Shown: positions 20,487-42,450, numbered from the stretch's first letter. The stretch: 64,000 bases of DNA from an uncultured delta proteobacterium (GCA_963808625.1 CAWEHK010000023.1:32687-96686), one strand, 5' to 3'. The notes: generated by a model from the sequence alone, not told the origin. Made by a program: numbers and translations.

Positions 20487-23099
20487 ATGAAATCACGGGA
20501 AAAAAATACCGAGAGCAAGGTCTTCCCCATCGTCGGAATTGGGGCCTCCGCAGGGGGGCTTGAGGCTTTCGAACAATTCCTGCGCAGCACGCCACCCGAC
20601 ACCGGCATGGCCTTCGTCCTGGTCCAGCATCTCGACCCCACGCATAACGACATCATGGCCGAGCTCCTGCAGCGTGTCACCAAAATGAAGGTTTTTCAGG
20701 TCAAGGATGCGACCAGGGTTGAACCGGATTGCGTCTACGTGATCCCACCCAACAAGGACATGTCGATCCTGCATGGTGTTCTCCACCTCATGGAACCATC
20801 TGCCCGGCGCGGGCTGCGTCTTCCCATCGATTTCTTTTTCAGACACCTGGCGGAGGATCAGAAAACGAGAAGCATCGGCGTCATCCTCTCCGGCATGGGA
20901 ACGGACGGCACCCAGGGGCTAAAGGCGATCAAGGAAAAGATGGGCATGACCATGGTGCAGGATCCCGCCTCGGCCAAATTCGGCGGCATGCCCGGCAGCG
21001 CCGTCGATATGGGTCTTGCGGATTACATCGGCCGTGCCGAAGACCTGCCGGCAAAACTGCTCGCCTATGTCAAACACACGGCTGCCTCGAAAGCGCGGTT
21101 AGCCGCCGAGGAGAAGACTTCAGGCGCCCTGGAGAAGGTTTGTATCCTACTGCGAGCCCATACCGGCAATGATTTCTTCCTCTACAAAAAGAATATGCTC
21201 TACCGCCGCATTGAAAGACGGATGAGCATCCACCAGATCGACAAGATTCTCCTCTATGTCCGTTTTCTTCAGGAGAATCCCCAGGAACTCGATTTGCTCT
21301 TCAAGGAGCTGCTGATCGGGGTGACTAATTTCTTCCGGGATTCAGACGCCTTTGAGGTACTGAAAGCAAAAGCCATCCCCATGCTCTTGAAAAACAGGAT
21401 GCCGGATAACACCCTGCGGATATGGGTCCCGGGGTGTTCCACGGGGGAAGAGGCTTATTCCATGGCCATCATCCTGAGAGAGATGCTGGATGAGGTCAAA
21501 AGCAAATCCAGGTATAAGGTCCAAATCTTTGCTACCGACATTGACAAGGACGCGATTGATAAAGCCCGTCACGGTATTTATCCGGGCAGCATTGCTGCTG
21601 ATGTGTCTCCGGAGCGGTTGAAGAAGTTCTTCGTCAAAGAGGACGGCAACTATCGGGTCGGCAAGGAAATCCGGGAGATGGTGATCTTTGCGCCCCAGAA
21701 CGTCACCACGGACCCGCCCTTCACCAAGCTCGACCTGATCAGTTGCAGGAATCTCCTGATCTACCTGAACCCTGAACTGCAAAAGAAGCTCCTCTTCCTC
21801 TTTCACTACTGCTTGAGGCCCGAGGGTATTCTCTTTCTCGGTCCATCCGAGACCACAGGGAGCCTTACCGACCTCTTTGGCGCCCTGGAGGTCAAATGGA
21901 AGCTTTATGTGCGCCGGGAGTCTGCTGCTGCCATGATGCAGGGACTCGAGTTTCCCGCCTCCCTTTTCTCTCCTGAAACGGTTGAAAGGGAAGGGTTGAG
22001 AAGAGGTGAGGGCGCCCTTGCGAGCAACCTTCAAGATCTGGCTACCCGGCTGTTGCTCCAGGACTTTACCCCACCAGCCGTGCTCATCACCGACCAGGGT
22101 GACATTCTTTATATTAGCGGGCGTACCGGGAAATACCTCGAACCTGCGGCCGGGAAGGCCAATCTGAATATCTATGCCATGGCGCGTGAAGGGCTGCGAT
22201 ATGAACTGGGAAGCGGGGTGCAAAGAGCGTTAGCGGAGCATGAAGTCGTCGTCATTAAGGGGCTCACAGTAAAGACCGACAGCGCCCACCAAACGATCAA
22301 CCTCACCATCAAACCGGTAACTGAGCCGGGAGCGCTGAAGGGGCTCCTGCTGGTCGTCTTTGAGGATGTGGCAGGACCCCTGGTGACAAAACGGTCGCGC
22401 GGCCTAAAAATGGTCCCGGAAACCTTCCATGACGACAGGGTTGTCGAATTGGAAAGGGAACTTCAGTATACCAAACACAATCTTCAGAAAACCCTCGAAG
22501 AAATGCAGACTTCTCAGGAAGAGCTCAAGTCAGCCAACGAGGAGTTGCAGTCAACCAATGAGGAACTGCAGAGCACCAACGAAGAGTTGACCACATCCAA
22601 AGAGGAGCTGCAGTCCCTGAACGAGGAGCTGATGTCGGTCAATGCCGAGCTGGAGACCAAGATCGATGAACTGACCCTCACTCACGACGATATGAAGAAC
22701 CTCCTCAACAGCACTGACATCGCGACCCTCTTTCTTGACGGTGATCTGAACGTGAGACGCTTCACCCCGCAGGCGACCAACATCATTAAGCTGATAAGAA
22801 GCGACATCGGGAGGCCCATCACCGATATCAGGACGAGTCTTCACTATGACGCTCTGGTGGACGATGTGAAGGAGGTGCTCGAGACTCTTGCTTTCAAAGA
22901 AGTCCAGGCAATGACAAAAACCGGGCAGTGGTACACGGTGCGCATCATGCCTTACCGCACCCATGAGAACGTTATTGACGGCGCGGTGATTACCTTTGTG
23001 GACATTACGGCATTGAAGCAACTGGAAATATCGCTAAGGGAAAACGAGGAGCACTTGCAGGCTCTTCTGAGCTGCCAAAATCCGGAGATGCGAACATGA
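20487..23099 (+). CDS. CheB methylesterase-CheR methyltransferase fusion with coiled coil and PAS
   Basis: [41 protein letters not shown]; (EELQS)n coil. Confidence 0.9.
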
Positions 23100-25595
23100 C
23101 AAAAGATAAACCAAACTCACCGGACTTTTCCGCACTGCGCCGCGAGGCGGAAGAGCGGTTCGCGGAGAGACGGCGGGAGACCGGTCAACCCCCGGGTTAC
23201 GTTGAAAAATTGTTGCACGAATTACAGGTTCACCAGATTGAGCTCGAACTACAGAATGAGGAGCTTCGCAGCACCCAGGTGCAACTTCAAGAATCCCTCA
23301 CGCAGTATTCAGATCTCTATGACTTTGCGCCGGTAGGCTATTTCACCTTAAATGAAGAGGGACTGATTCTCAGGGCAAACCTTGCCGGGGCCACGCTCCT
23401 GGGTGTGGAGCGGCGCAATCTCATGAACAAGCCGCTGCGAACTTTTATTGCAAATGAGTCCCGGACAGTTTTTGATGATTTCCGTAGGACCCTCTTCAAA
23501 ACGTTGACCAAGCAACTGTGTGAAGTGAAGCTTTCGAGGGAAGGAAACCTCTCAGCCCATGTGCTGGTCGAGGGCATGGTCATCGAGGATACGCAAGGGA
23601 GCGGAAAACAATGCCGCATAGCAATCATTGATATCACCGGCCGGAAGCATGCCGAGGTGGCCCTTCGCCATGCTCACGACGAGTTGGAAGAAGGCGTGCG
23701 AGAACGCACCGCCGAACTGGTGGCTGCCAACCAGGAATTGCAGGCCGAGATCGCCGAGCGCAAACAGGTGCAGGAGGTCCTGAGCAAAAGCGAGGAACGC
23801 TTCCGCTCCCTGGTAACGGCCACCTCACAGATCGTGTGGACCACCGACCCAATGGGAGAGGTAGTGGATGATCTCCCCGCATGGCGTGTTTTCACCGGCC
23901 AGAGCGAGGAGGAGTACAAAGGTTCGGGCTGGAGTCAAGCGCTGCACCCGGAGGATCGCCGGCGAACCGCGGAAATCTGGAAGCAAGCCGTAAAATCACG
24001 AACGATCTATGATACCGAGTATCGCTTGCGTCGTTATGATGGAGAATATCGGCACGTTGCCGCGCGAGGTGTGCCGGTGCTGGACAAGGATGGCAGCATC
24101 CGGGAATGGGTAGGGACCTGTACCGACATCACCGAACGAAAGCGGGCAGAGGAAACCCTGAGGCGATACGCATTGCTCTCAAAACATGCTCGCGAAATCA
24201 TCCTCTTTATCTCTCAAGATGGGCGCATTTTGGAAGCCAATGAAGCCGCCTGTGCAGCATACGGGTATGATCGGGAAACTATTTTAGCCTTGACTGTTAA
24301 CGATCTTCGAGCTCCTGAGACGAGAGCATCAGATACCGGATCAAATGGAGAAAGCCTTCAGCGAGGGGAATTTTTTCGAGAGCAGGCACGTGCGAAAGGA
24401 CGGCAGTGTCTTCCCGGTTGAGGTAAGCTCCCACGGTGTCGAATTCGGTGAGGAGAAAATCCTTCTGAGCATTATCCGGGACATCACTGAGCGCAAACAG
24501 GCGGAAGAAAAGGTAAGCAGCGCCAAGGCAATGCTGCAGACGATCTTCGACGGTATTTCAGATCCCCTGTTAATGGTTGCAAAGGATTTTACCGTCAGGA
24601 TGCTCAACGAAGCTGCATCGAGATACTATCGCATCGCCGACAGCGAAGAGACGGTACGGAAATTTTGTTACGAACTGGCTTTTGGAAAACATGAACCCTG
24701 TGACGGTTGCGTTGTGCGTTCGGCCATGCAGGAGGGAAAGAGTACAATCTGGGAGCGGAAAGGACTCTTCGATTCGGAGCGTACCGAAGAAGTGGTAGTT
24801 TACCCTGTAGACGAGGCAGATAGTGGGTTTTCCGGCGCCATTATCCGAATCAGTGACATCACCGAAATCAGGAACTTGGAGAAACAGATGATGCGTGCGG
24901 ACCGGCTCTCTTCTCTGGGACAGCTTTCAGGTGGCATCGCCCATGAAATCCGAAATCCTTTGGCTGGAATAAGCCTCTTTGTCGATGTCCTCAGGAACGA
25001 AGAAAAATTCAGTCGGACCAGCCAGGAACAAATTATTTTTGAAGAGATCAAGCACAACATCCGGAAGATTGACGGGATCATCAAAAGAGTCCTGAGTTAC
25101 GCCAGGCAGTCGGGTGATACCAGCCAGAGCAGGCTGGAGGTGCGCCGACTGATTGAGGAGGGCCTCAAGCTCTGGCGCTTAAGGCTGGAGAACGATGGCA
25201 TTCAATTGAGATTGTCCCTTGAGGAGGACCTTCACGAGGTCCTTGGAGATCCCATTGAAATCCACCAGGTCCTGACTAACCTGATTCAGAATGCCCTTGA
25301 GGCTATGGACAAAGAAGGCACCCTCAGCATCAGCGTTCAAAATGGAAGCCTCTCCTGTGATACGAAACGCCCAGCGGTGATCATAAAGGTCGAGGACTCC
25401 GGCCGGGGAATTCCATTCGACCAGCAAAAGCACATCTTCAATCCGTTTTTCACCACCAAGCATACCGGTACGGGGTTGGGGCTGGCCATCTCGCACCGGA
25501 TCGTTGCCCGCCACGGGGGGCTCATCTCATTCAAGAGCGTACCCGATGGGGGAACGACATTTACGGTTGAACTTCCCGCTGCACCAAGGGGTTGA
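23096..25595 (+). CDS. Multi-PAS sensor histidine kinase (frameshift near 24335)
   Basis: [13 protein letters not shown]-terminus, PAS repeats, H-box [11 protein letters not shown] boxes GTGLGL; overlaps the cheBR stop. Confidence 0.85.
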
Positions 25596-25810: not shown

Positions 25811-27012
25811 TCAAGAGGAGACGCTTCCCCTCCGTTCCCGGGGAAGGTTCCTGAGAAAAAGGTAGGAAAGCGGCGGCAGGAGGATGAGAAAGCCGTAGAG
25901 GAGTAGATGGAAGGTCTCTTGCACCGCCACCTGGTCGGCCAGCCTGCCGACAAGGGGGCCGGTTATGATGAAGGCGACACGGAACGCCAGGGCCTGGAGG
26001 GACAGGATGCTTGCCCGATTCGCCGACGGGCTTTCGCCCTGGGTATGGCTGAGGAACATCGGCCCCCGCAGCCCCCGCATGCTGGTCAGGAGGTAGTAAA
26101 AGAGGAAGCCGAAGGCCCCCCCGATGAGCCCGAGTCCGCAATAGCCTGCCAGGATCAGGGCGATGCAGAGCAGGACCATGTTCCGGTCCCCGAGGGAAGC
26201 GTGCACCCGGTGGCTTGCCAGGGCAAAGATTGCTACCGTGAGATTGGCCCCGGTCCAGACCGGGCCGAACCAGGCCAGGGGCACACCGTGCTGCTGCATA
26301 TAGGGCTGGATGAGCCAGACCGGATAGAAGGAAGCGAGCCCGAGGAACGTGTTGAGGAGGATGGTGGCGCGCAGGCGTCGGTTTTCAACGAAGGCGTAAC
26401 GGGTGATCCGGAGGGCTTCCGCAAGGTGCGTGCGGGTAAAGAGCACCTGATCCCGCGGAGGTTCGTGCAGGGTGCGGGTAACGGAAAATGCTATGACCCA
26501 TACCCCGATCTGGAGGAAAAACGGGAGGAGGGGAGCGGAGGCGTACAGCACCCCCGCAAACAGCGCCCCCAATGCCTCGCCCGTCTGGGCGAAGCCGTTC
26601 ATACGTCCTTCGTAGCGGGCGTAGAGATGCTCCGCTCCTTGGCCCGCAGCGACTCATAAAGGAGTGCGCTATCGGAGCCGCTGATGAACGACAAGGCGGT
26701 GCCGAGGAGGATTTCGGCGGCCAGAACGTCGGCAAACGAGTCAGCTATCGTGTAGATCCCCCACCCGGCGGTGCCGAGAACGGTGGCGATGGTGAGGGCG
26801 TTGCGGTAGCCGAGGCGGTCGCTGATGTAGCCGGAAGGGTATTCGAGGACCACGGTGGCGGCGGAGAAGATGCTCTGCAAGAGGAGGATTTCCGTCAGGT
26901 TCAGGCCGATGTGGTCTTTCCAGAAGAGCGTGATGATCGCCATGGGGAACAGGGTCTTCTGGAGGAAGGAGAACGCGTAGAGTTTACCAATATTTGCGTG
27001 GAGTTTTGTCAT
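25811..27012 (-). CDS. MFS transporter (frameshift near 26620)
   Basis: LEYPSGYISDRLG, SGSDSALLYESL, RASILS motifs; two ORFs join. Confidence 0.85.
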
Positions 27013-27570
27013 CGGCCTATGAGGTTCACGGAGCACCTAGAAAACTTGCTCATCCGTGCCACCGGGTGAGCCCATAGCATTCATCTAATCCATGAATGTT
27101 TCATCTTACACCCACATAAAATCAAGGGCAAAGGTCAGAAGGGGCCTCTATTCGGAAACAGATTTTGGCGGGAACGACCCACCGATCCTGCGGGGATTTA
27201 AAGTATGTCAAATTTTTGACTTCAATTGGCATAATGTGCTGATTGCAAATATGGGGTCGCCTGTTTCTCGAGGACATTTTCCCTTTGACAACGGTGTGTG
27301 GCTGCCTATACTGAATTCGGCCGCTGTCTGAAGGAAGGCGGGCCGGAGAATCACGCGCTGCTTTCACCGTCAGAGCACATCCTCCAAAGTGAAATTTCTG
27401 TCGCCTCCTTTTCGATTGCCTTGCATTGTCCATTCTTCTTTCTATCGTCCTTGCAGACTCTCCGGGAACGTTAAACCGGCTGTGAAAGGGGGTGATGGAG
27501 GGGAAATTCAATCAGGCAGGACTCGTTCGTTGGTACCCATTTGAATGAACATTGGTGGAAAGGAGCGAAG

Positions 27571-28662: not shown

Positions 28663-29916
28663 ATGGCGTCACGAAAGGGCATCATTGTTCTCATGGGTTC
28701 CGGAGAACTGACGGCAACCATGGTTGAAGTCCATAAAGAATTGCTGGCGCGGGTCCCTGCTCCGCCGCGCGCGGTTTTTCTCGATACGCCTGCGGGCTTC
28801 CAGCTCAACGTAGACCAGTTGTCGCAGAAAGCCGTCGAGTATTTTCACGACCGTATCCAGCAACCCATGGCTGTCGCTTCGTTCAAGGCAAAGGAGGCGA
28901 TCACGCCAGACGAAACCGAGCGAGCCTTCCGCACCCTGCAGGACGCCAATTTTCTCCTTATTGGTCCCGGAAGTCCCACCTATGCGGTGCGCAACTGGCG
29001 GCAGACGCTCATTCCGGAACTCCTCACGAGAGCGATCGAGCGAGGTGGCTGCCTGATTGCGGCCAGCGCCGCCGCGCTTACGGTGGGAAGCTTTTCCCTT
29101 CCCGTCTATGAGATCTATAAGGTGGGCGAGGACCTGCATTGGGTCGAAGGAGTGAACATCCTTGCCCATTTTGGCTTCAACCTCGCGGTGATTCCCCACT
29201 GGAACAATGCCGAAGGGGGTACGCACGATACGCGGTTCTGCTACATGGGGGAGGCGCGCTTCGAGAAACTCGAGGCCCTTTTGCCGGAAGACGTTGCCAT
29301 TTTTGGCCTGGATGAACATACCGCATGTCTGATGGACCTCGAGACCGACGAGGCGGTGATCAAGGGCATCGGCCGGGTAACCCTGCGACAGCGCGGTTCC
29401 GAGATCACTTTCGAGAAGGGGGAGCGCTTTTCGCTGGATCTCCTGCGCGGTGACAAGACCCACAAGGCATGGAAGGCGATCACCCCGCAGGCCGCCCCGG
29501 TGGAGCTCCCTGCGGGTGTACGGCAGGAGTCTTTCTGGGACCGGATTCATGCGCTCGAGGCGGTCTTTCATGCCGGTTTCGAGCAATATGAACTGAAAAC
29601 CATTACCAGCACCCTGCTGGAGCTGGATCGAACGATCTGGGAGGCCCATCAGGACCTTGAGAGTACGGAATTCATCTCCCAGGCGCGGGAGATATTGCGG
29701 GAGATGATCGTCCTGCTCGGGGTGAAACTGGACTCTGCTCCGCAGGATAAGACCGCATGCGTGGCCCCTCTCGTTGTGGAAATGATCGCGTTGCGGGAAA
29801 GATTCCGACAGGGGAAGAAGTGGCAGGAGGCCGATGCGGTTCGTGAAAGCCTGCAACGTGGGAACATCATTGTGGAAGACACCAAGGATGGTCCTCGCTG
29901 GCACGTGGGGTCTTGA
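28663..29916 (+). CDS. Peptidase S51/class I GATase-like domain fused to a CysRS C-terminal anticodon-binding domain
   Basis: MGSGE, GPGSP, nucleophile elbow ASAAA, IPHWN, GLDEHTA; C-terminal R.RFR....W..ADAVR..L...NIIVED...GPRW. Confidence 0.8.
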   Translation: MASRKGIIVLMGSGELTATMVEVHKELLARVPAPPRAVFLDTPAGFQLNVDQLSQKAVEYFHDRIQQPMAVASFKAKEAITPDETERAFRTLQDANFLLIGPGSPTYAVRNWRQTLIPELLTRAIERGGCLIAASAAALTVGSFSLPVYEIYKVGEDLHWVEGVNILAHFGFNLAVIPHWNNAEGGTHDTRFCYMGEARFEKLEALLPEDVAIFGLDEHTACLMDLETDEAVIKGIGRVTLRQRGSEITFEKGERFSLDLLRGDKTHKAWKAITPQAAPVELPAGVRQESFWDRIHALEAVFHAGFEQYELKTITSTLLELDRTIWEAHQDLESTEFISQAREILREMIVLLGVKLDSAPQDKTACVAPLVVEMIALRERFRQGKKWQEADAVRESLQRGNIIVEDTKDGPRWHVGS

Positions 29917-29989
29917 GGGCCGGGAGCCGGGAACCAGCTCATCGCAATCTCCCTATGGTCTGATTCGGTTGTAACGGAGGGCTTCAAAC

Positions 29990-31642
29990 ATGATCTGTCA
30001 TCCTGCCATGTCAGTCCTCTTTGTGGCTGATCATAGCGATGCACCCCTGAAGGCCCTGTTGACTTCCCTGCAATCCATCCGGCATGTCGCTCTCACCGTC
30101 GTCCCGGAAATGCCTCAGGATTTGGGCTCTTACGGCGTCGTTGTGACGGCAAACACCGGGGCTTTCGCTGCCGGCTACGATCGCCTGGTGCACTTTGTCC
30201 AGGCCGGCGGGGGGTGGTTGGCGCTGGTTCCCCTGGCGGAGAGGCCCCTTCCGGATCTCTTTGGGGCGCAACCAGCCCTGCCCGGACCGCTCGCAGAGTT
30301 GCGCGTTTTCTTTCAGAATGTCAGCTCTCCATTTACCGCGCGCTTACCCGAGGCTATTTATCTCCATAGCTGCTATCAGCCCCTGGAAAAGACCGCGGAA
30401 GACACGGAAATCGTCCTGGGTGCCGATTGGCACTACGGCAAGAGACCGGTTTTGGTCCAGCGGCAGGTGGGCAACGGGCGGGTCGCGTGCACTACCTTGC
30501 AGGCCTATGACCATCCTGCTTTTCAGCGCATCCTCTACCGTCTGCTCTACCATTTATGCCGCCGATGCCTGGAAGAGCGGACCCTGCGCGTGGGGCTGCT
30601 CGGCTACGCGCCATCAATCGGTCAAATCCATGGTGTGAGTGTCGAAGCTACTCCCGGTCTGGCTCTCCGTGCCGCCTGTGATTCGAACCCGGAACGACTC
30701 AGACAGGCGCAGCGGGATTTCCCCCACCTCAAGAGCTATCCCTCCGCCGACCTCCTTGCCGAGGATCGCGATGTGGAAGTGGTGATCGTCGCCACACCAC
30801 CGAATACTCATGCCGGTCTCGCTCTTGAAATGATGGCCGCCGGCAAGCATGTGGTTTGTGAGAAGCCCCTGGCTTTGAACCTCAAGGAAACTACCGCGAT
30901 GGCAGCTATGGCCGAAAGACAACGCGTCCATCTCGGTTGCCATCAAAACCGACGCTGGGATGTCGATTACCTCGCGATCAAACAGGCCCTCGCCGATGGG
31001 CTGATTGGTGATCTGTTCTACATGGAGACCTTTGTGGGTGGTTTCAGGCATCCCTGTGGCTACTGGCATTCGCACGCTCCCATTTGTGGGGGCACGAGCT
31101 ATGACTGGGGGGCCCATTACCTTGACTGGATGGTAAGTCTCATGCCTGACCGGGTGACAGCGGTAATCGGTACACGCCACAACCGGATCTGGCACGATAT
31201 TACGAACGCTGATCAGGAACGCATCCAACTGCGCTTTGCAGGAGGGCAGGAAGCGGAATTCATCCATTCCGATATCGCCGCCGTGTCCAAACCGAAGTGG
31301 TATCTGCTGGGTACCGAAGGCGCCATCATCGGCCACTGGAAGGATGAAACGATTTGTGAGCTTGACCCGGTGCTCTGTTTTCAACAGCATCCCATCCCGG
31401 TAACGGAAATGCCGCCCGACTTAACCCTTCATCGTCGACACCACTCGGGACAGATCGTCGCCCAAAAACTGGCAATGCCCAGGCGCGAACCTTATCTTTT
31501 TCACTGGAATCTCGCTGACCACCTGCTATGGGGCGAACCCATCGCAGCGCCACTCGAACATTCGGTGCAGGTGGTGGCAATTTTGGAAGCGGCAGCACGG
31601 TCGGCCGAGAAGGGCGGTACGGTGGAGGAACTGAATGGCTGA
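29990..31642 (+). CDS. Gfo/Idh/MocA oxidoreductase with an N-terminal ThuA/GATase-like domain
   Basis: FVQAGGG and G.GRV in the N-domain; AGKHVVCEKP, NRRWD, DWGAH. Confidence 0.8.
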   Translation: MICHPAMSVLFVADHSDAPLKALLTSLQSIRHVALTVVPEMPQDLGSYGVVVTANTGAFAAGYDRLVHFVQAGGGWLALVPLAERPLPDLFGAQPALPGPLAELRVFFQNVSSPFTARLPEAIYLHSCYQPLEKTAEDTEIVLGADWHYGKRPVLVQRQVGNGRVACTTLQAYDHPAFQRILYRLLYHLCRRCLEERTLRVGLLGYAPSIGQIHGVSVEATPGLALRAACDSNPERLRQAQRDFPHLKSYPSADLLAEDRDVEVVIVATPPNTHAGLALEMMAAGKHVVCEKPLALNLKETTAMAAMAERQRVHLGCHQNRRWDVDYLAIKQALADGLIGDLFYMETFVGGFRHPCGYWHSHAPICGGTSYDWGAHYLDWMVSLMPDRVTAVIGTRHNRIWHDITNADQERIQLRFAGGQEAEFIHSDIAAVSKPKWYLLGTEGAIIGHWKDETICELDPVLCFQQHPIPVTEMPPDLTLHRRHHSGQIVAQKLAMPRREPYLFHWNLADHLLWGEPIAAPLEHSVQVVAILEAAARSAEKGGTVEELNG

Positions 31643-32645
31643 ACGCATCAGGTGGGGGATTTTGGGGAACGCCAACATTGCCCGGGTATGCGTGATCCCC
31701 GCGATCCAAAAATCACGTAACGGCAGGGTCCGCGCTTTGGCAACCAGATCGCCGCAATTGGCCGAAGAGGTCGCACTCCAGCACCACATTCAGTGTATTT
31801 ATGAACACTATGAGGCCTTGGTGATCGATCCTGAGATCGATGCTCTTTATCTTCCTCTGCCCAATCATCTCCACCACGAATGGGCAATCAAGGCGCTGCA
31901 GGCCGGCAAGCATGTGTTGTGCGAAAAACCGCTCGCATGCACTGCCGGCGAGGCTCAGGAAATGGCTCAAGCCGCGGCAGACAACCGTTTACTGCTGATG
32001 GAGGCGTTCATGTATCGCTTCCACCCCCGGATGCAGCGGATCAAGGGTATGGTGGGCGAGGGTCTGATTGGCGCACCGTGCTTTGTGCGGTCGGCCTTTT
32101 GCTACCACATGGGAAATGATGTGCTCGCATGCGGCGATAATATTCGCCTGAAAGCTGAGATGGGCGGCGGCGCGCTCCTGGACGTAGGATGTTACAGTGT
32201 CAGTGTTGCGCGATGGCTGCTGGGGCAGGAACCGACACACCTGCAGGCCCACGCGGTTTATCATCCGGGCGGGGTTGATCTGCATTTTGTGGGGTTGATG
32301 CGTTTCCCCGGCGGGGAACTGGCCACCCTGGAAGCGAGCTTCGCCTCGGCCTTGCAGCAAACTTTCACCATTGTGGGCAGCGAAGGGGCGATCGAACTTC
32401 CCCATGATGCCTTCATCCCCTGGGAAAAGGACGCCGTTCTCATCCTGCGCGGCCAGAAGGAGGAGGTGGGGCGGGAACAGGTCATTCCCGGAGCTGATGA
32501 ATATCGGCTTATGGTTGAACATTTTGCTGATGCGGTTCTGGGGAAGACAGCTCTGGCCTTCACCCCGGATGAGAGTGTTCGCAACATGCGCGTGTTGAGT
32601 GGGCTGGCGGAAGCCGCGCACACCGGGAGAACAATCATTTTGTGA
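31635..32645 (+). CDS. Gfo/Idh/MocA family oxidoreductase
   Basis: IRWGILG.A.IA, AGKHVLCEKP, MEAFMYRFHP, GGGALLDVGCY. Confidence 0.9.
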   Translation: MAERIRWGILGNANIARVCVIPAIQKSRNGRVRALATRSPQLAEEVALQHHIQCIYEHYEALVIDPEIDALYLPLPNHLHHEWAIKALQAGKHVLCEKPLACTAGEAQEMAQAAADNRLLLMEAFMYRFHPRMQRIKGMVGEGLIGAPCFVRSAFCYHMGNDVLACGDNIRLKAEMGGGALLDVGCYSVSVARWLLGQEPTHLQAHAVYHPGGVDLHFVGLMRFPGGELATLEASFASALQQTFTIVGSEGAIELPHDAFIPWEKDAVLILRGQKEEVGREQVIPGADEYRLMVEHFADAVLGKTALAFTPDESVRNMRVLSGLAEAAHTGRTIIL

Positions 32646-32736
32646 TGAGGTGCTCCGCTTGCTTTCTGGATAACAGCATAGGATTACCAGTAGGGTGAAC
32701 AACAGGCTTGGACAAGAACTGCGGGAGACAAGGCTG

Positions 32737-33740
32737 ATGACATCGGAAGGGACTTACGCCGTGACCGCAGAGACTTTCAAGAGCGTCAGTTCGTGCTGGC
32801 TCGACTCCGGGAGTCGCTTGAAATGGGATTGCCTCTTCGTTCTGCCCGCCTGGTTGAGAGTATGGTGGGATTTTTTCGGCGGCGGCCTGACGCCATACCT
32901 CCGGAGTGTAAGGCGGGGAGGGGAGGTGATCGGGATCGCCCCCCTGGTGCTCCAGGAGGACACGGCAAACTTCATGGGCAGCGCTGAGGTCTGCGATTAT
33001 CTGGATTTCGTGGTGGCCCCGGGCAGAGAACAGGAGTTTTTTCGGGCGCTCATCGAGCACTTGAAGCGGGAGGGGGTCACTCACCTGGATTTGGGGCACC
33101 TGCGCCCTGACTCGACCGTGCTTACGGCTCTCGCACCGGCAGCAAAGAACCTGGGATGCGAGTTTTCCTGCCACCAGGAAGATGTTTCCGTGGAGCTGGA
33201 CCTGCCGGCGACGTGGGAAGGATTCCTGTTCAGTTTGACGGGGAAGGAACGCCACGAGGTGCGACGCAAGCTCAGGCGACTGGAGGAGGCCGCGAGCATC
33301 CAGTTTCGCGTCCTTGACGAGACGCAAGAGATCATGAGGGCGATGGACACTTTTCTGACGCTCTTCAGATTGAGTCGTCCGGAAAAGGCCGCCTTCATGA
33401 CCTTGCGCATGGCTGCATTTTTTCGATCCCTGGCCGAGACCTGGCTGAATTGAAGATTTTGAAGCTCTCTTTCCTCGATCTCGACGGGACCCCGGCTGCT
33501 GCGGCCCTGTGCTTTGATTATGAGGCCACCGTCTATCTTTACAATAGTGGGCATGACCCCCGCTTCCGGGGGCTGAGCGCAGGCCTCCTCGGCAAGGTGT
33601 TCAGCATCCGGGACAGCATTCGAAGAGGCCGGAAGAAATACGATTTTCTAAAAGGAGCCGAAACCTACAAATATCGCCTGGGGGGGAGGCCGGTCCCCTT
33701 GTATCGTTGCCAGGTCGAATTACGTGGCAAAGGGGAGTAA
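32737..33740 (+). CDS. CelD/BcsL-type double-GNAT (FemAB-fold) acyltransferase (frameshift near 33440)
   Basis: W...WW, GIAPL, DYLD, LPATWE.FL, YLYNSG, YDFLKG.E.YK. Confidence 0.8.
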
Positions 33741-33742
33741 TC

Positions 33743-34990
33743 TTGGGAAGACGTCCGCTTAGAATCGCAGTGCTCAGCGTCCATTCCAGCCCTATCGGGA
33801 AACTGGGCACCAAGCATACCGGCGGGATGAGCGTCTACATCCGGGAACTGGCAAGGATGCTGGGAATACGCGGTCATCGGGTTGATATCTTTACCCGCCT
33901 TCAGGATCCCGAGGGAACCCAGTGTGTTCAATTGTACGAAAATGTGCGGCTGATCCATCTGCGGGCCGGAAATGAAGGGCCCATGCCAACTCTGGCCCTG
34001 TATCCCTATCTGGACGATTTCTTCCGCGAAATGGAACGATTCCGGGCCGGCGAACAGCGTCATTATGACCTCATCCACAGCCATTACTGGCTCTCCGGTC
34101 AGGTGGGCAAATGGTTGGGGGAGCGCTGGAATGCCCCTCACATGGTCATGTTCCACACCCTCGCTGCGTTGAAGAACACGACCGTTCAAGAGGAGCAGGA
34201 ATCAGAGCTTCGCATCGCCACGGAAAGGGACCTGGCGCAAAGCTGTCAGCGCATCCTGGCGGCCACCGCAAGGGAGAAAGAACATTTGTCGCACTACTAC
34301 GGAGCGCATCCCGAGAAGATCGGGGTGGTGCCCTGTGGCGTGGACCTCGAGCGTTTTTGCCCGATGGATAGAAAGATCGCGCGCAGGCAGTTGGGATTTG
34401 CCGACGATGAGTCGATCGTGCTCTTTGTCGGCAGGCTTGCGCCCATCAAGGGAATAGATCGGCTCCTGCGGGCCATGACCTACCTCAAGCCGCTCAAACC
34501 CATACGGCTGGTAATCATTGGCGGTGATGACCACCACACACCCGAATCGCAGGACCTGCACCGCCTGGCCGTGGAGTTGGGTGTGCAAGATGTTGTGGTA
34601 TTTCTGGGCAGAGTGGAACATGAAGCGCTGCCGCCCTATTACTGCGCTGCCGACGTTGTGGCGCTGCCGTCCCATTACGAAACCTTCGGGCTCGTGGCGC
34701 TGGAAGCCCTCGCCTGCGGGACGCCGGTCGTAGCAACCCCGGTGGGCGCTATGGAGACGATCCTCCGGGAAGGTGAAACCGGACGCGTCGTCGCCAATGG
34801 CGCGCCGCAAGACCTGGCTGCAGGGATTGACGAGTTCACTGCAAAAACGGTTGCGGGGGAGCTATCGGTCGCTGCCATTCGCGGGTCGGTCCTGGGATTT
34901 GGCTGGGACCATGTGGCCACAGCAATAGTTGACCAATACGCAACCCTGCTGCGGCAACATCGCGGTGCAGTGAGTGCCGGCGATTCATAG
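33743..34990 (+). CDS. MshA-like GT4 glycosyltransferase
   Basis: LSVHSSP..GGMSVY, VDIFTR, YDLIHSHYWLSG, FHTL, GRL.P.KG, PSHYETFGLVALEA. Confidence 0.85.
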   Translation: MGRRPLRIAVLSVHSSPIGKLGTKHTGGMSVYIRELARMLGIRGHRVDIFTRLQDPEGTQCVQLYENVRLIHLRAGNEGPMPTLALYPYLDDFFREMERFRAGEQRHYDLIHSHYWLSGQVGKWLGERWNAPHMVMFHTLAALKNTTVQEEQESELRIATERDLAQSCQRILAATAREKEHLSHYYGAHPEKIGVVPCGVDLERFCPMDRKIARRQLGFADDESIVLFVGRLAPIKGIDRLLRAMTYLKPLKPIRLVIIGGDDHHTPESQDLHRLAVELGVQDVVVFLGRVEHEALPPYYCAADVVALPSHYETFGLVALEALACGTPVVATPVGAMETILREGETGRVVANGAPQDLAAGIDEFTAKTVAGELSVAAIRGSVLGFGWDHVATAIVDQYATLLRQHRGAVSAGDS

Positions 34991-35180
34991 CCGTTCAGGG
35001 GCCAACGATTCAGACTAGTGAACAAAGGTTTCGTGCATAATCACGACAACGGAATTTCAAGGAAGTTTCAAACTGTGTCGGTGCAGATTTATCCAGCCTG
35101 CCATGCCGAAACGGCGAAAAGGCAGGTTGGAAAGCCTGCATCCACAAATCGAGGCGCCGTGAGGAAACTTCATTGTAGTA

Positions 35181-35331
35181 TTAGTACCGCACGGCAGAAT
35201 AAAGTGTCCATTATCCCCGGTCGTCATTCCCGCATGCTCTTAGCGGGAATCCAGCAACAGAGCCTGGATGCCCGCCTTCGCGGGCATGACGACTGGAATT
35301 CGGACACTCATTTATGCTGAGTTGTACTTAG
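35181..35331 (+). mobile_element. MITE family B copy
   Basis: ttagtaccgcacggcagaa...ttatgctgagttgtacttag, flanked by TTAG at both ends. Confidence 0.75.
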
Positions 35332-35463
35332 GAGACGTCCAAAAATAAAAAACCTTTTACCACGAAGAGCACCAGACACGAAGTGATTACTTCATACTCT
35401 TCGTGTTCTTCGTGGTTCGAAAAAGGGCTGAACTGAGTGCAAGTGGTTTTGGACAGTTGCCTG
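35329..35463 (+). mobile_element. MITE family A copy abutting the family B copy
   Basis: ggagacgtccaaaaa...ttttggacagttgc. Confidence 0.75.
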
Positions 35464-35490
35464 ACGGCTAAGAGGAGGAGGTTCAGTTTG

Positions 35491-36190
35491 ATGGAGAAAG
35501 TTGACGCTGATGTCATGGTGGTATCACCTCATCCGGATGACGCCGAATTCGGTGCGGCAGGGACGGTCGCCCGCTGGACGAGGGAAGGAAAGCAGGTGGT
35601 TTACGTGATTTGCACCAACGGTGAAAAGGGCACCAGCGACCACACCGTGAAACCCGAACAATTGGCTGAAATGCGCCGGCAGGAACAGTGGGCGGCCGCC
35701 AGGGTCCTGGGAGTAAGGGACGTGATCTTCCTGGGATACCCGGATCAGGGTCTCGAAGACACGCCGGCGTTCCGCAAGCAAGTTGCAAGGTTGATCCGCA
35801 CCTATCGACCAACCATCGTGGCGACGGCAGATCCTTACCGGCGCTATATCTGGCATCGCGATCATCGCATCACCGGCCAGGTGGTCCTGGATGCGGTTTA
35901 CCCTTTTGCCCGCGATCATCTGGCCTACCCTGATTTGCTCGAGGAAGGGCTGGAGCCTCACAAAGTGGAGGAAATGCTCTTCTGGGGGGCAGATGAAGTG
36001 AACTATTGCTCTGACATTACGGACACTTTTAGCCTGAAGCTTGAAGCCCTGCTCTGTCATGAAAGCCAGGTCAGGGAGTTCCGGACCCCAGACCTGGAGG
36101 GGTGGCTGCGGCAGCGCTGCCAGGCAATGGCCGAGGGCCAAGAGCTTCGAGCTGGCCGAGGCTTTCCACCGGGTGGAAATCACGTGGTGA
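35491..36190 (+). CDS. PIG-L/LmbE family deacetylase (MshB/Mca/BshB-like; frameshift near 36140)
   Basis: PHPDDAE, CTNGEKG, RRQEQ, HRDH, HESQ; corrected C-terminus ..LAEAFHRVEITW. Confidence 0.85.
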
Positions 36191-36282
36191 TCTTCGCGCC
36201 GAAGTCCGAAGCATGCGCACACAAATAGCACCTTCTGAAAGCCGGATCGCGTTTCAGCTCAATTGCTCCTTGCTCTCGGCCA

Positions 36283-36363
36283 CCAGTCATCAACCGTCAA
36301 CCAGTCAACCGTCAACCATCAACCATCAACCATCAACCATCAACCACTAGCCACTAACCACTA
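36283..36363. repeat. Heptamer tandem repeat (CATCAAC/CCACTAA-like)
   Basis: catcaaccgtcaaccagtcaaccgtcaaccatcaaccatcaac...ccactagccactaacca. Confidence 0.75.
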
Positions 36364-36999
36364 CATATCCCAAAGCACATCTCCGCAAAGGTCCGCTGGG
36401 TGGGGTCGCGCCGAAAAGATCTGGAACGCCTGCCTTTCCCTCCCAACGATCGTCGCTTCGCCATGGCCGGGGTAAACCAGCGTCTCATCGGGGAGGTCAA
36501 AAATCTTTCGTTCGAGGGTTTCAATGATCTGATGGAAATCGTCAGGCGAGCGGGTGTGACCCGGGCCTCCTGGAAACAGCGTATCGCCCGCGATGAGGAA
36601 ACGACCGGTAAGGAAAGAAATGCTGCCCGGCGTGTGTCCTGGTGTGTGCACCACCCGCAGGTGAAGCGCCCCACAGGAGACGATATCTCCATCCTGCAGC
36701 AAGATATCGGGCGGCAAGGGCAGCACGGGAGCGTCGGCCGCATGGGCGGCCACCGGCACCCTCAGCAGAGCTTTAAGCTCGACGAGTCCACCGACATGGT
36801 CCGGGTGGCCATGGGTAATCAAGATGTAGTGGGGATGAAATCCCTCGAGGCCGGCCAAAATCTTTTCGGACTCGCCCGGGGCGTCAATCACGACACAGGC
36901 GCCGGTCTTCCTACAGCTTAAAAGGTACGTGTTGGTTCCATACTGACCCAGTTCGAGTCGTGCGATTTCGATCATGCTGTTCTTCTCAACGGTCGCCAT
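36361..36999 (-). CDS. MBL-fold metallo-hydrolase (glyoxalase II-like)
   Basis: THGHPDH, HTPGHTPG, GDTLF, YPGHG. Confidence 0.9.
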   Translation of the reverse strand: MATVEKNSMIEIARLELGQYGTNTYLLSCRKTGACVVIDAPGESEKILAGLEGFHPHYILITHGHPDHVGGLVELKALLRVPVAAHAADAPVLPLPPDILLQDGDIVSCGALHLRVVHTPGHTPGSISFLTGRFLIAGDTLFPGGPGHTRSPDDFHQIIETLERKIFDLPDETLVYPGHGEATIVGRERQAFQIFSARPHPADLCGDVLWDM

Positions 37000-37042: not shown

Positions 37043-37203
37043 GGGTGCAGCACAACATAATAATATGTCCACATTCCCTCGGTCGTCATTCCCGCATGCT
37101 CTTAGCGGGAATCCAGAGAATTTGCAGAGCCTGGATTCCCGCCAGAAGCAGGCGGGAATATCGAGTGGAATTCGGACAGCCAGGTATGCGGGGCTGTACT
37201 AAG
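37043..37203 (+). mobile_element. MITE family B copy
   Basis: gtcattcccgcatgctcttagcgggaatccag core; ..atgcgggctgtacttaa end. Confidence 0.7.
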
Positions 37204-37237
37204 GCCCCGGCTTGGGTATTTGAAAGAAACACCATGG

Positions 37238-39175
37238 TCATGAGTAAGAATTAAGGCGTTCTTTCAGTTTTGGGAAAAGGCCAAGATCGGTATGGGGCAA
37301 GAATAGGGCTGCCACATATCGATTCATATAGGAAGGTGTCTCCGAAAGTTCGAAATTTGTCATTTTCCTCATTGCTGTCACGACATCTTTTCTGATTCGA
37401 TTGGTGAGGCAACAGATCCTTGCCCCCATCAACGATCCGTTTCCAATGTAGGTAATCTTGTCGGGATCGATTTCAGGCAAAAGTCCGATAGTCATCGCCT
37501 GCTCGATATCCACATGGCTTCCGAATCCTCCGGCAAGAATGATCCGGTCCAGATCGGAGATGCTCAAACCCACTTCATCGAGCAGGGTTTGACATCCACT
37601 GTAGATGGCGCCCTTTGTGCGAATGAGATTGACGATGTCGATCTCAGTCAACACGATGTCTCTGTCAATCTGCGTTTCATTCTTCCATGCCAGAACGTAC
37701 TCATATACACTGTCTATTTCACGAATTCGGTTTGAGTTTAAGTCTCGATTGAATTTTCCACTGCCGTTGATAATTCCGCTTTCAAACAGATTAGCGACGA
37801 TATTGATCAGTCCTGAACCGCATATGCCTTTGGGCCTGACATTGCCAATAGTCATATTCATTGGCTCGAGGGTGAGCGGGTCAATTGAAAAATATTCAAT
37901 GGCGCCTTCCGTAGCCCGCATGCCGAACTGGATCCCGCCGCCTTCGAAAGCCGGTCCCGCCGAACAGGCGGCACAGGCAAGCCAGTCCTTGTTGCCGATA
38001 ACGATCTCAGCGTTGGTGCCGATGTCGATGTATAGTGTTAAAAGATCTGATAGGTAAATACCTGATCCCATTACACCGGCAACAATGTCACCGCCGACAA
38101 AACTTGAGATATTGGGATAAACCAGTGCCGTCGTATGATCGGCCAGATCCATGCCTAAATCAACTGCCCGGATCAGTGGATAGAGCGTCGATGCCGGCAC
38201 ATACGGCGATCGTCTAATGTATCGAGGATCTATATTTAATAGGACCTGTGTCATGGTGGTGTTGCCGGCTAACGTGATGGTCGAGACTTCGTCGCGGTTA
38301 ACACCGGAACCTTTAACGATTTTGTCGATAACTCTATTAATGGTTTGTGTGACAACTTCATGAAGTTTTTCCAATCCGCCCGGTTTTTCGGCAAACATGA
38401 TCCGGGAGATGATATCCTCTCCATAACTGATCTGACCGTTAAAATCGCCATACTCGGCGAGGATGTCTCCCGTGATGAGATTGATCAGTTGGCCGTAGAC
38501 GGTTGTTGTGCCAATATCGATGGCTATGGCAAAGTTCCTGTCGGTGGTGTCTCCAGGTTCAATATTGATGATCTGGGTCTTACCACTTTCCACAACGGGT
38601 CTTGCCAATGTTGCCGTGACCTTAAAGTCGGCTTTTCTTAAAATATCTGGAAGCTTCCGAATAACGGGCAGGGAAACAACCAACCGATGCTCGTCATAGT
38701 TGAGTTTCAAGAAGCTGATCAGACGGCTGGTGTCCGCAAGATTATCTCGTGACGAAGGTTCGGGGAGGTCCAGGTACCTCTTTTCAACCGGTGGGATGAA
38801 AAGGCCTCGATCTTTCAAATCGTCAAGATTGAGCTGTTGAATTCGTGCGGTTCGCCTGGTGGGCCTGTATTTATTTAAGACACTGGTGTCCACTTCCGAT
38901 TCCACGGGAATGCGCACCACGAGGTCACTCGTTACTCGCGAAAGGCAGGCCAGCCGATAGCTCTTATCAAGATCATCCTGGCTCAGTTGTTCTGAAATGC
39001 CATCGTCAACACTCCCCTTTTCAATAATTACCCGGCACTTGCCGCACTGCCCTTCACCCCCGCATGAAGCATTCACATGAACCCCCGCTTCCATCGCGGC
39101 CTCCAAAAGACTCCCGCCATCAGGAGAAGCGATCTCTCGGTTGTGCGGCAGGAACATTACTTTATGCGTGATCAT
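37238..39175 (-). CDS. ASKHA/DUF4445 [2Fe-2S] reductive activator of corrinoid enzymes (RACE-like)
   Basis: CGGEGQCGKC..LAC, DIGTTT, DIGTNAE, SAGPAFEG, GICGSG, AGGFG. Confidence 0.9.
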   Translation of the reverse strand: MITHKVMFLPHNREIASPDGGSLLEAAMEAGVHVNASCGGEGQCGKCRVIIEKGSVDDGISEQLSQDDLDKSYRLACLSRVTSDLVVRIPVESEVDTSVLNKYRPTRRTARIQQLNLDDLKDRGLFIPPVEKRYLDLPEPSSRDNLADTSRLISFLKLNYDEHRLVVSLPVIRKLPDILRKADFKVTATLARPVVESGKTQIINIEPGDTTDRNFAIAIDIGTTTVYGQLINLITGDILAEYGDFNGQISYGEDIISRIMFAEKPGGLEKLHEVVTQTINRVIDKIVKGSGVNRDEVSTITLAGNTTMTQVLLNIDPRYIRRSPYVPASTLYPLIRAVDLGMDLADHTTALVYPNISSFVGGDIVAGVMGSGIYLSDLLTLYIDIGTNAEIVIGNKDWLACAACSAGPAFEGGGIQFGMRATEGAIEYFSIDPLTLEPMNMTIGNVRPKGICGSGLINIVANLFESGIINGSGKFNRDLNSNRIREIDSVYEYVLAWKNETQIDRDIVLTEIDIVNLIRTKGAIYSGCQTLLDEVGLSISDLDRIILAGGFGSHVDIEQAMTIGLLPEIDPDKITYIGNGSLMGARICCLTNRIRKDVVTAMRKMTNFELSETPSYMNRYVAALFLPHTDLGLFPKLKERLNSYS

Positions 39176-41669: not shown

Positions 41670-42450
41670 TCAGGGTTTTGCCCACAATTGCCGGTATGCC
41701 AGGCCCGTTGCGATCACCATGGGCACAACCCCGAAGGCGATGAAGACGACATCACCCGGCATGCGCATCCATTCGATAAAACTTACGAAGCCTTGATTCA
41801 TATAGCATGACTTCGGGCATGCCAGTAACCATTGTTCAGCACATCCCAGAGCTGCAATACGCCGCCCGGGAACAGGCTCAAAATAACCATCAGGGCAAGG
41901 CCGGCATTCAGACCGAAGAAGGCAACCCTGATATACTTTTCAGGTTTCACCCATTGGTCCTCGGTAAACATGGCTGCAAGTGCCATCTTCATGGCCGACT
42001 GGCCGGTCCAATACCAGTGGTGGGCCGTGCCCACAATCCCGCTGCCCAGAAACAGAATGGCATCGAGATAGATCACCCGTACGGCCGTCTTCCTGGAAAC
42101 CATTCCCAGTTGAAAAAATTACCGCAACCGGAACCGTGACGAATAATTCGAAGAAGCCTTCAACCCAGAGGTGGATGATCCAGAACCGCCACATGTCCAC
42201 CACCGCATAATTTGATTTGCTCCCGAAGAAGAATGCAGGCAAATAGAAGAATGGGATGGCGGCGGCGCCAAGCAGGAAAAGCGTCGCGATTTCCCGTCGT
42301 TCGGGGTCTCTCCTTGCGGGGGCAATGGCCCGGTATAGAAGAAAAAGCCAAAAAACCAGCCCGATTGCCAGCAGGACTTGCCATGCGCGCCCCAGGTCGA
42401 GATACTCCCAGCCCTGATGGCAAACCAGAACCAAATCTCCAAGGTGGCGG
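41670..42450 (-). pseudogene. norB: Quinol-dependent nitric oxide reductase (qNor) remnant
   Basis: HQGWEYLDLGR, WIIHLWVEGFFE, GTAHHWYW, GYWHARS, RMPGD; 5'-truncated, frameshifted, internally deleted. Confidence 0.85.

Follow-up and report, generated by a model that had tools for sequence, protein, structure and literature searches.

A gene cluster of anaerobic Desulfobacterota with a proposed tRNA-dependent route to a mycothiol-type thiol

The closest described systems to the gene cluster reported here are the mycothiol pathway (Ino1, MshA, MshA2, MshB, MshC and MshD) and the bacillithiol pathway (BshA, BshB and BshC). The available text of PMC6282198 confines the complete mshA-D set to Actinobacteria, and mshABC has been annotated outside that phylum in the consulted part of a preprint on the Binatota (10.1101/2020.09.14.296780), so that a mycothiol-type pathway beyond the actinobacteria has precedent. 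The small thiol of many prokaryotes is unknown, and low-molecular-weight thiols are understudied in anaerobes, according to the available sections of PMC6282198 and PMC9874932, respectively. Here we describe a cluster at positions 28663..36999 of a 64,000-nucleotide stretch of DNA from an uncultured delta proteobacterium (GCA_963808625.1 CAWEHK010000023.1:32687-96686; the whole stretch is called the window below), which probably makes a mycothiol-type thiol with cysteine drawn from Cys-tRNA, and which thereby gives a candidate molecule and enzyme for the small thiol of anaerobes. The window is part of a 4.8 Mb genome that is 84.6% complete, and the nearest matching locus belongs to a metagenome-assembled genome of the Syntrophobacteraceae.

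The cluster beside mycothiol and bacillithiol synthesis

Six plus-strand genes and one convergent gene were confirmed, just as an initial annotation of this DNA had described them; the first five are tightly packed, and the sixth comes after a 500-base gap with a REP-like palindromic repeat.

28663..29916, plus strand: fusion of an S51 (peptidase E/cyanophycinase-like) serine hydrolase with the helical/anticodon-binding C-terminal module of a cysteinyl-tRNA synthetase (CysRS), predicted accessory hydrolase or transacylase directed at tRNA(Cys)
29990..31642, plus strand: ThuA-like domain with a Gfo/Idh/MocA oxidoreductase (YdgJ/YvaA-like), accessory (Pfam; best PDB matches 3e18 and YvaA)
31635..32645, plus strand: Gfo/Idh/MocA sugar oxidoreductase, accessory
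32695..33740, plus strand: Fem-type tandem GNAT (Pfam Acetyltransf_6), proposed Cys-tRNA-dependent ligase, in two open reading frames (ORFs) here
33734..34990, plus strand: MshA-like GT4 glycosyltransferase (TIGR03449, PDB profile)
35491..36228, plus strand: PIG-L/LmbE de-N-acetylase of N-acetylglucosamine (GlcNAc), MshB/BshB role (PF02585, 2e-36)
36361..36999, minus strand: glyoxalase-II-like hydrolase of the metallo-beta-lactamase (MBL) fold, recurring accessory (TIGR03413 92 bits, below the cut-off)

With the mycothiol pathway the cluster shares the MshA-like GT4, the PIG-L, a genomic ino1, phosphatase and mycoredoxin-like neighbours, and a ligase slot that an MshC-type gene can occupy. It differs in the absence of MshC and MshD, in the proposed Fem-type GNAT ligase, in GT4 and PIG-L scores under the curated cut-offs, in the extra S51-anticodon fusion and in its hosts, which are anaerobic Desulfobacterota and not Actinomycetota. 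Bacillithiol synthesis is alike in its logic of GT4, PIG-L and cysteine ligase and in an unacetylated cysteinyl-glucosamine product, as predicted here, and the PIG-L scores highest to BshB1 among the NCBIfam models, whereas the GT4 scores 111 bits with the BshA model (cut-off 274) against 338 with that of MshA and there is no bshC here. In short, the cluster resembles mycothiol synthesis in its working but falls outside it on MshC and MshD. Full-text literature searches, most subscription journals being outside their reach, found it described nowhere, and the available parts of PMC2922099 and PMC9437257 do not mention it.

The conservation of the cluster was surveyed in the best 80 of 407 GTDB-genome stretches matched by the fusion protein, with genes counted within 10 kb of the fusion, where numerous contigs end early. 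The GNAT was found in 61/80 loci, the GT4 in 56/80, the PIG-L in 49/80, the ThuA-Gfo gene in 40/80, the other Gfo gene in 33/80 and the MBL gene in 24/80; the fusion, GNAT, GT4 and PIG-L are the core kept across Desulfobacterota, and the two Gfo genes are accessory. Further recurrent neighbours are an HAD phosphatase (16/80), a fusion of a mycoredoxin-like domain with thioredoxin reductase (9/80) and a stand-alone S51 protein (8/80), and a few loci have an MshD-like tandem GNAT (6/80; 106 bits against a cut-off of 163) or ino1 (5/80). The genome of the window has, on contig C51, orthologs of two of these neighbours, the HAD phosphatase and the stand-alone S51 protein; it also has ino1, on contig C30, and a canonical CysRS. 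Four genes had been reported missing from the window by the initial annotation: ino1 is thus present in the genome, and no bshC, mshD or mshC was found in its 84.6% complete assembly.

A phylum profile of 301 sampled genomes (GNAT threshold E 1e-40, fusion E 1e-20) placed the fusion in 38, the GNAT in 59 and the GT4 in 44, the last count being taken from an alignment-based search, as the TIGR03449 genome search scored five candidates per genome and missed orthologs. The GT4 of genome G030 was excluded (44 to 43), being the weakest (2.4e-79; the others 8e-100 or better), with a different N-terminal motif and no cluster. Among the 43 genomes with an MshA-like GT4, the GNAT is present in 41 and the fusion in 32. 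The genes occur together widely, in the 80 loci and in the 301 genomes, which speaks for the initial annotation. Moreover, ino1 is present in 44/47 cluster genomes and in 25/50 without the cluster (kin in these counts are not independent), and an MshD-like gene in 1/47 cluster genomes. Outside the Desulfobacterota, atlas look-alikes of the fusion are placed in Chloroflexota and Actinomycetota and those of the GNAT in Chloroflexota, and look-ups by name give the fusion in Acidithrix and Ilumatobacteraceae. One locus (L070) belongs to a Nitrospiraceae record, in whose phylum the GNAT is patchy, because 0/120 additional genomes sampled carry it. Searches of plasmids yielded cysS genes, two distant GNATs and nothing else.

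The Fem-type GNAT and its replacement by an MshC-type gene

The structure of the GNAT was modelled from the intact ortholog in the nearest relative, L006 (pLDDT 96). The first Foldseek matches of the model were Sbb17 and Sba18 (aminoacyl-tRNA-dependent amino-sugar acylases), FemA, FemX and MprF, and VIA-align gave Z 21.5 for FemA/FemX, 21.0-21.1 for Sbb17/Sba18 and 14.6 for MshD, which appeared in row 30; rows 1-15 were all Fem, Sbb17/Sba18 or MprF/PGS enzymes (Z 17.8-21.5). The protein has a basic helix in which R173, H174, E175, R178, K179 and R182 are kept in 50/50 sequences, and on its C-terminal side Y312 is kept in 50/50 and K313 in 49/50. In the available text of PMC12945691, FemX has a basic tRNA-binding helix and a Lys near its C-terminus, and the helix and K313 of the GNAT seem to match that helix and Lys305 of FemX. 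The same text describes Orf11, which acylates streptothrisamine, an amino sugar, from Gly-tRNA, and, as user of Cys-tRNA, the PEARL TglB, whose fold differs. The GNAT shares with FemABX, Orf11, Sbb17 and Sba18 the tandem GNAT fold (Z 19.6-21.5), a helix of basic residues and a Lys towards the C-terminus, but it is only 11-18% identical to them and differs in its proposed donor, Cys-tRNA, and proposed product, a redox thiol.

Judged by its modelled fold, this protein belongs to the Fem-type tandem GNATs, nearer to aminoacyl-tRNA transferases than to MshD, and it is probably the substitute of MshC, a Cys-tRNA-dependent cysteine ligase. The initial annotation had cast it as the counterpart of MshD with an unrelated fold; neither part stood, since the fold lies nearer the aminoacyl-tRNA transferases, it was the GNAT that an MshC-type paralog displaced (see below), and the GNAT shares the superfamily of MshD. 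The PDB, searched by sequence with a profile of the GNAT, gave no match, and a predicted complex between the GNAT and the S51 domain scored 0.06. An acetyl-CoA motif sought by regular expression gave scattered chance matches, at unrelated places in 29/50 rows, and was dropped.

Among the GT4 genomes only G025 and G063, both of one genus, lack the GNAT, and at their loci another gene fills its place:

L098:6378-8102 (G025:C163): MshC-type CysRS paralog directly upstream of a decayed Fem-GNAT
L129:1251-3282 (G063:C119): MshC-type CysRS paralog directly upstream of a decayed Fem-GNAT

The order in these genomes is MBL, MshC-like gene, GNAT remnant with stops, GT4, and that in G277, G251 and G068 is MBL, GNAT, GT4; in all five the MBL gene lies directly upstream of the ligase slot. 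The MshC-like protein has about 400 residues and no anticodon domain, and both genomes have a separate full CysRS. It shares GITPYD, THLGHA.TY, VQN, E.G.DP, HHE.S and GNLVL with M. smegmatis MshC. Counts for three of the motifs separate the short paralogs (50, 42 and 45 of 58) almost completely from proteins with an anticodon domain (1, 0 and 1 of 23). The GT4 of G025 and G063 is nested among GNAT-linked ones (SH-aLRT 94) in a quick tree which, having no rows for actinobacterial MshA or sucrose-phosphate synthase, cannot test orthology. On the simplest reading, an ATP-dependent cysteine ligase took over the job of the GNAT in these two genomes; the swap would then, without recourse to the fusion, mark the GNAT as the ligase and show that its amino acid is cysteine, and the locus indicates the gene and the amino acid to examine.

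None of the 301 genomes passed the MshC cut-off (TIGR03447), and the full-length MshC-like matches, the three best, were in G025, G139 and G063 only. The terms of the MshC motifs are absent from PMC13156731. The 80 closest metagenome relatives of the MshC-like gene (L139-L218) form a family of short, MshC-like CysRS paralogs that is widespread and lacks an anticodon domain.

The S51-CysRS fusion and the sugar enzymes

The N-terminal domain of the fusion was assigned to S51 by PDB profile (6nqc, 1.2e-8) and by Foldseek (6nqc, PepE and cyanophycinase); Pfam (PF03575) makes no S51 call at E 0.01. S135, H179, E218 and C193 are invariant in 58/58 sequences, a conserved Cys and Arg lie near the triad, and among 150 representatives at 50% identity the triad is kept as Ser in 148/149, His in 149/150 and Glu in 140/148. 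The fusion is like peptidase S51 (PepE, cyanophycinase and the acI peptidase 6NQC) in its class I GATase-like fold and Ser-His-Glu triad, but differs by its CysRS anticodon module and its GPGSP, YEIYK and HDTRFC motifs; we know of no peptide substrate for it. The tail aligns with residues 413-459 of E. coli CysRS: R378, R382, D391, R394, D406 and W413, invariant in the 58 sequences, correspond to R423, R427, D436, R439, D451 and W458, and W387 (W432 in CysRS) is kept in 52/58. Of the 139 representatives that cover the four charged anticodon positions, 136-138 conserve them. According to the available text of PMC12684709 and PMC13449415, R423, R427, W432, D436 and R439 of E. coli CysRS touch the GCA anticodon or have been the target of attempts to alter how it is read. 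The family is large (595 clusters at 50% identity, E under 1e-30); no tRNA-Cys gene was found in the window or in 59 scanned loci.

The fusion has no Rossmann adenylation domain (HIGH/KMSKS), and TIGR00435 matches it at positions 361-464 only. At E 1e-20 it is missing from 11 of the 43 GT4 genomes, all six of family f25 included; at E 1e-3, five of these 11 show matches in the C-terminal region only, nearly all of them in CysRS genes. It is retained elsewhere in G025 and G063, the two genomes with the MshC-like gene in the cluster. The initial annotation had made the fusion the counterpart of MshC, a role that the missing adenylation domain, the fusion-less genomes and its retention beside an MshC-type gene speak against. 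Its residues predict a protein that recognises the tRNA(Cys) anticodon; it is probably not the ligase, and in its own right it would be an uncharacterised tRNA(Cys)-directed enzyme. Of two hypotheses, an accessory hydrolase directed at tRNA(Cys) to remove damaged or blocked Cys-tRNA and a cysteine relay to the GNAT, we favour the first, because the fusion persists without the GNAT (G025, G063 and G043) and the GNAT without the fusion. A bolder combination seems to us doubtful, if worth stating: the Asp-peptidase-like S51 domain would strip oxidised (Asp-mimicking sulfinate or sulfonate) or blocked Cys from tRNA(Cys), a new type of hydrolase with redox-linked trans-editing activity, and the Fem-fold Cys-tRNA ligase would truly replace MshC non-orthologously, making unreported cysteinyl-glucosaminyl-inositol in many anaerobes (Desulfobacterota and, by look-ups, Chloroflexota and others).

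Among models and structures the GT4 is likest MshA, as the initial annotation held: its best PDB match is C. glutamicum MshA (1.8e-69), and the two MshA-type motifs, LSVHSSP..GGMSVY and YDLIHSHYWLSG, are both present. We take H9, D20, K78, Y110, T134 and R154 to be the acceptor-site residues of MshA; a literature search for them came back empty. The corresponding positions in 53 GT4 orthologs are H in 52, D in 48, K/R in 43, Y in 53, T in 53 and R in 53, and several are similar in sucrose-phosphate synthase. The PIG-L ortholog of L006 has an archaeal diacetylchitobiose deacetylase as its best PDB match. The two Gfo enzymes may serve to convert cyclitols or sugars into one another or to salvage them; YvaA is the scyllo-inositol dehydrogenase IolW. 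The fusion of a mycoredoxin-like (WCPDC) domain with thioredoxin reductase lies directly upstream of the cluster at L054:6286-7524 and recurs at 8 other loci; the domain scores 82.8 bits with TIGR02200 (cut-off 89.5), and the protein is by sequence a candidate thiol reductase.

Proposed pathway, alternatives and the copy in this genome

From folds, residues, gene order, co-occurrence and one displacement we infer each step of a route from inositol phosphate (Ins-P) through GlcNAc-Ins-P, GlcNAc-Ins and glucosaminyl-inositol (GlcN-Ins) to Cys-GlcN-Ins, usually unacetylated, and we regard a mycothiol-type thiol made in this tRNA-dependent way as the probable function of the cluster. Ino1, encoded elsewhere in the genome, would provide inositol phosphate, to which the MshA-like GT4 would attach GlcNAc; the HAD phosphatase, often near the cluster and here on another contig, would take off the phosphate, and the PIG-L would expose the amine, giving GlcN-Ins. 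The Fem-type GNAT would then move Cys from Cys-tRNA(Cys) to that amine, in analogy to Orf11, Sbb17 and Sba18, which act with Gly or Ala on streptothrisamine, and so form Cys-GlcN-Ins (desacetyl-mycothiol). The S51-CysRS fusion may dock on the tRNA(Cys) anticodon while its serine triad clears damaged or blocked Cys-tRNA or relays cysteine, and use of the thiol would fall to the mycoredoxin-like reductase and the glyoxalase-II-like hydrolase. That cysteine is the amino acid is supported by the tRNA(Cys)-reading fusion and the displacing CysRS paralog, both of which point to the operon. Because an MshD-like gene is so rare among cluster genomes, the product would be unacetylated in most lineages; of the initial annotation's two options, mycothiol or a new thiol, mycothiol itself is unlikely, since no acetylation step is encoded in the cluster. 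If the route holds, it is a third one to the cysteinyl-glucosamine bond, beside MshC and BshC, it couples thiol synthesis to the charged-tRNA pool, and surveys demanding mshC and mshD undercount mycothiol-type thiols.

Several observations weigh against this route. The GT4 scores 337.6 bits with TIGR03449, under the cut-off of 462.5 that was exceeded in 0/301 genomes; its runner-up structure is the sucrose-phosphate synthase Tll1590 (6e-63), and in the window and L006 it has His for Asp20 and Thr/Ala for Lys78 (His/Thr in the window copy). The PIG-L is likewise below every cut-off (BshB1 101.9, Mca 68 and MshB 48 bits, the MshB cut-off being 224). The swap amounts to a single event within one genus, in assemblies that are 6-8% contaminated, and the MshC-like protein scores 371-375 with TIGR03447 (cut-off 485) and, by phmmer, higher to CysRS (355) than to MshC (287). 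Its 80 closest metagenome relatives show no conserved neighbours, with GT4 or PIG-L near 0/80 and one gene 6.8 kb from a Fem GNAT, although many of their contigs are short, and G139 has the GNAT cluster together with an unlinked MshC-like gene. In the window a one-base deletion near 33436, relative to L006, breaks the GNAT into two ORFs (32695-33453 and 33450-33740). Finally, G042, G079 and G258 (genus g49, 95-98% complete; L219-L221) lack any GT4 of the MshA-like or BshA type but keep the fusion, GNAT and PIG-L; G142, of the same genus, does have the GT4, and the GT4-less clusters could be a recent loss or serve another acceptor.

The GNAT might instead load GlcN-inositol, or a different amino sugar, with an amino acid other than cysteine (Gly, Ala, Ser or similar), which would give a compatible solute or envelope block and no thiol. 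We think this improbable: the nearest structures do transfer Gly, Ala or Lys, the GNAT itself shows no mark of Cys specificity and the g49 clusters, which lack the GT4, point to a flexible acceptor, but a tRNA(Cys) reader and a displacing CysRS paralog, both cysteine-specific, meet at the operon, near which a mycoredoxin-like reductase recurs. Slightly less credit is due to the fusion as the cysteine ligase, taking Cys from tRNA(Cys) onto Ser135 and then to GlcN-Ins while the GNAT adds a second acyl group. Its absence from a quarter of the GT4 genomes, the whole of family f25 included, is difficult to square with that role, as are the decay of the GNAT and not of the fusion beside the MshC-type gene and the state of G043 (97% complete), which has the fusion and neither GNAT nor GT4; it can be said for it that the triad and anticodon residues are invariant and that the fusion is first in the operon and adjoins the GNAT in most loci, 34/38 fusion-bearing genomes having the GNAT. 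It is very improbable that GT4, PIG-L and an MprF-like GNAT aminoacylate a lipid of the GlcN-phosphatidylinositol type, for no membrane protein or lipid synthase is identifiable among the recurring neighbours, the GT4 family retains the MshA phosphate-binding positions and the MshC substrate is the soluble GlcN-Ins; the PIG-L family, the MprF/PGS domains among the fold matches of the GNAT (Z 16.6-18.8) and a weak Pfam match to LPG_synthase_C are what point to it.

A different matter, compatible with the tRNA-dependent thiol route, is whether the copy in this genome alone is decaying or has a changed acceptor. We consider this unlikely, though less so than the three alternatives above. Two core genes are broken by one base within 3 kb (the PIG-L has, relative to L006, one extra base near 36138 that alters the frame of its final few residues), the GT4 has two acceptor-site changes, and GNAT decay has precedent in G025 and G063; against this, L006 has the same GT4 changes alongside intact genes, and the cluster has no other in-frame stops. 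All 59/59 ORFs of relatives have the GNAT as a single ORF. Assembly error is plausible for both indels, because frameshifts were found at 4/50 testable loci of this assembly, the GNAT included. No public sequencing run contains this stretch (best share 0.11; no RNA run listed), and the reads of four public runs decide neither indel. A PAS histidine kinase (23096-25595), an MFS transporter (25811-27036) and nitric-oxide-reductase-like fragments (41798-42434) are likewise split in the window, which fits indel errors in the assembly.

A scan for promoters and terminators in the window gave chance level. An AcsV/RACo corrinoid reductive activator (37238-39175, minus strand) adjoins the cluster and is not part of it, as it is common only to the two nearest relatives. 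One further feature lies within the cluster and outside the pathway:

35215..35332, no strand: REP-like palindromic intergenic repeat (second copy at 37077-37204)

Both copies of the repeat have very high depth in unrelated sediment metagenome contigs, and a short 7-base tandem run between the PIG-L and MBL genes (36283-36353) is very abundant in unrelated sediment metagenomes.

In addition, 15 genomes have weaker GNAT matches and no MshA-like GT4, and two of those inspected adjoin a divergent GT4 and ino1. A divergent pair of GNAT and GT4, possibly a sister pathway, was seen in L096, L099, L100 and L105 (families f51 and f30), mostly without the S51 fusion; its GT4 has about 144 bits with TIGR03449 in the two scored, and ino1 is adjacent in L099 and L100. 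Locus L063, like the GT4-less clusters of genus g49, has the fusion, GNAT and PIG-L without the GT4. A CysK-like cysteine-synthase domain fused to a second CysRS was found at L002:1025-3210 (G000:C41), and similar genes in L108, L111, L112 and L113; it is in two ORFs in this assembly and in open frames of 780-790 amino acids in relatives.

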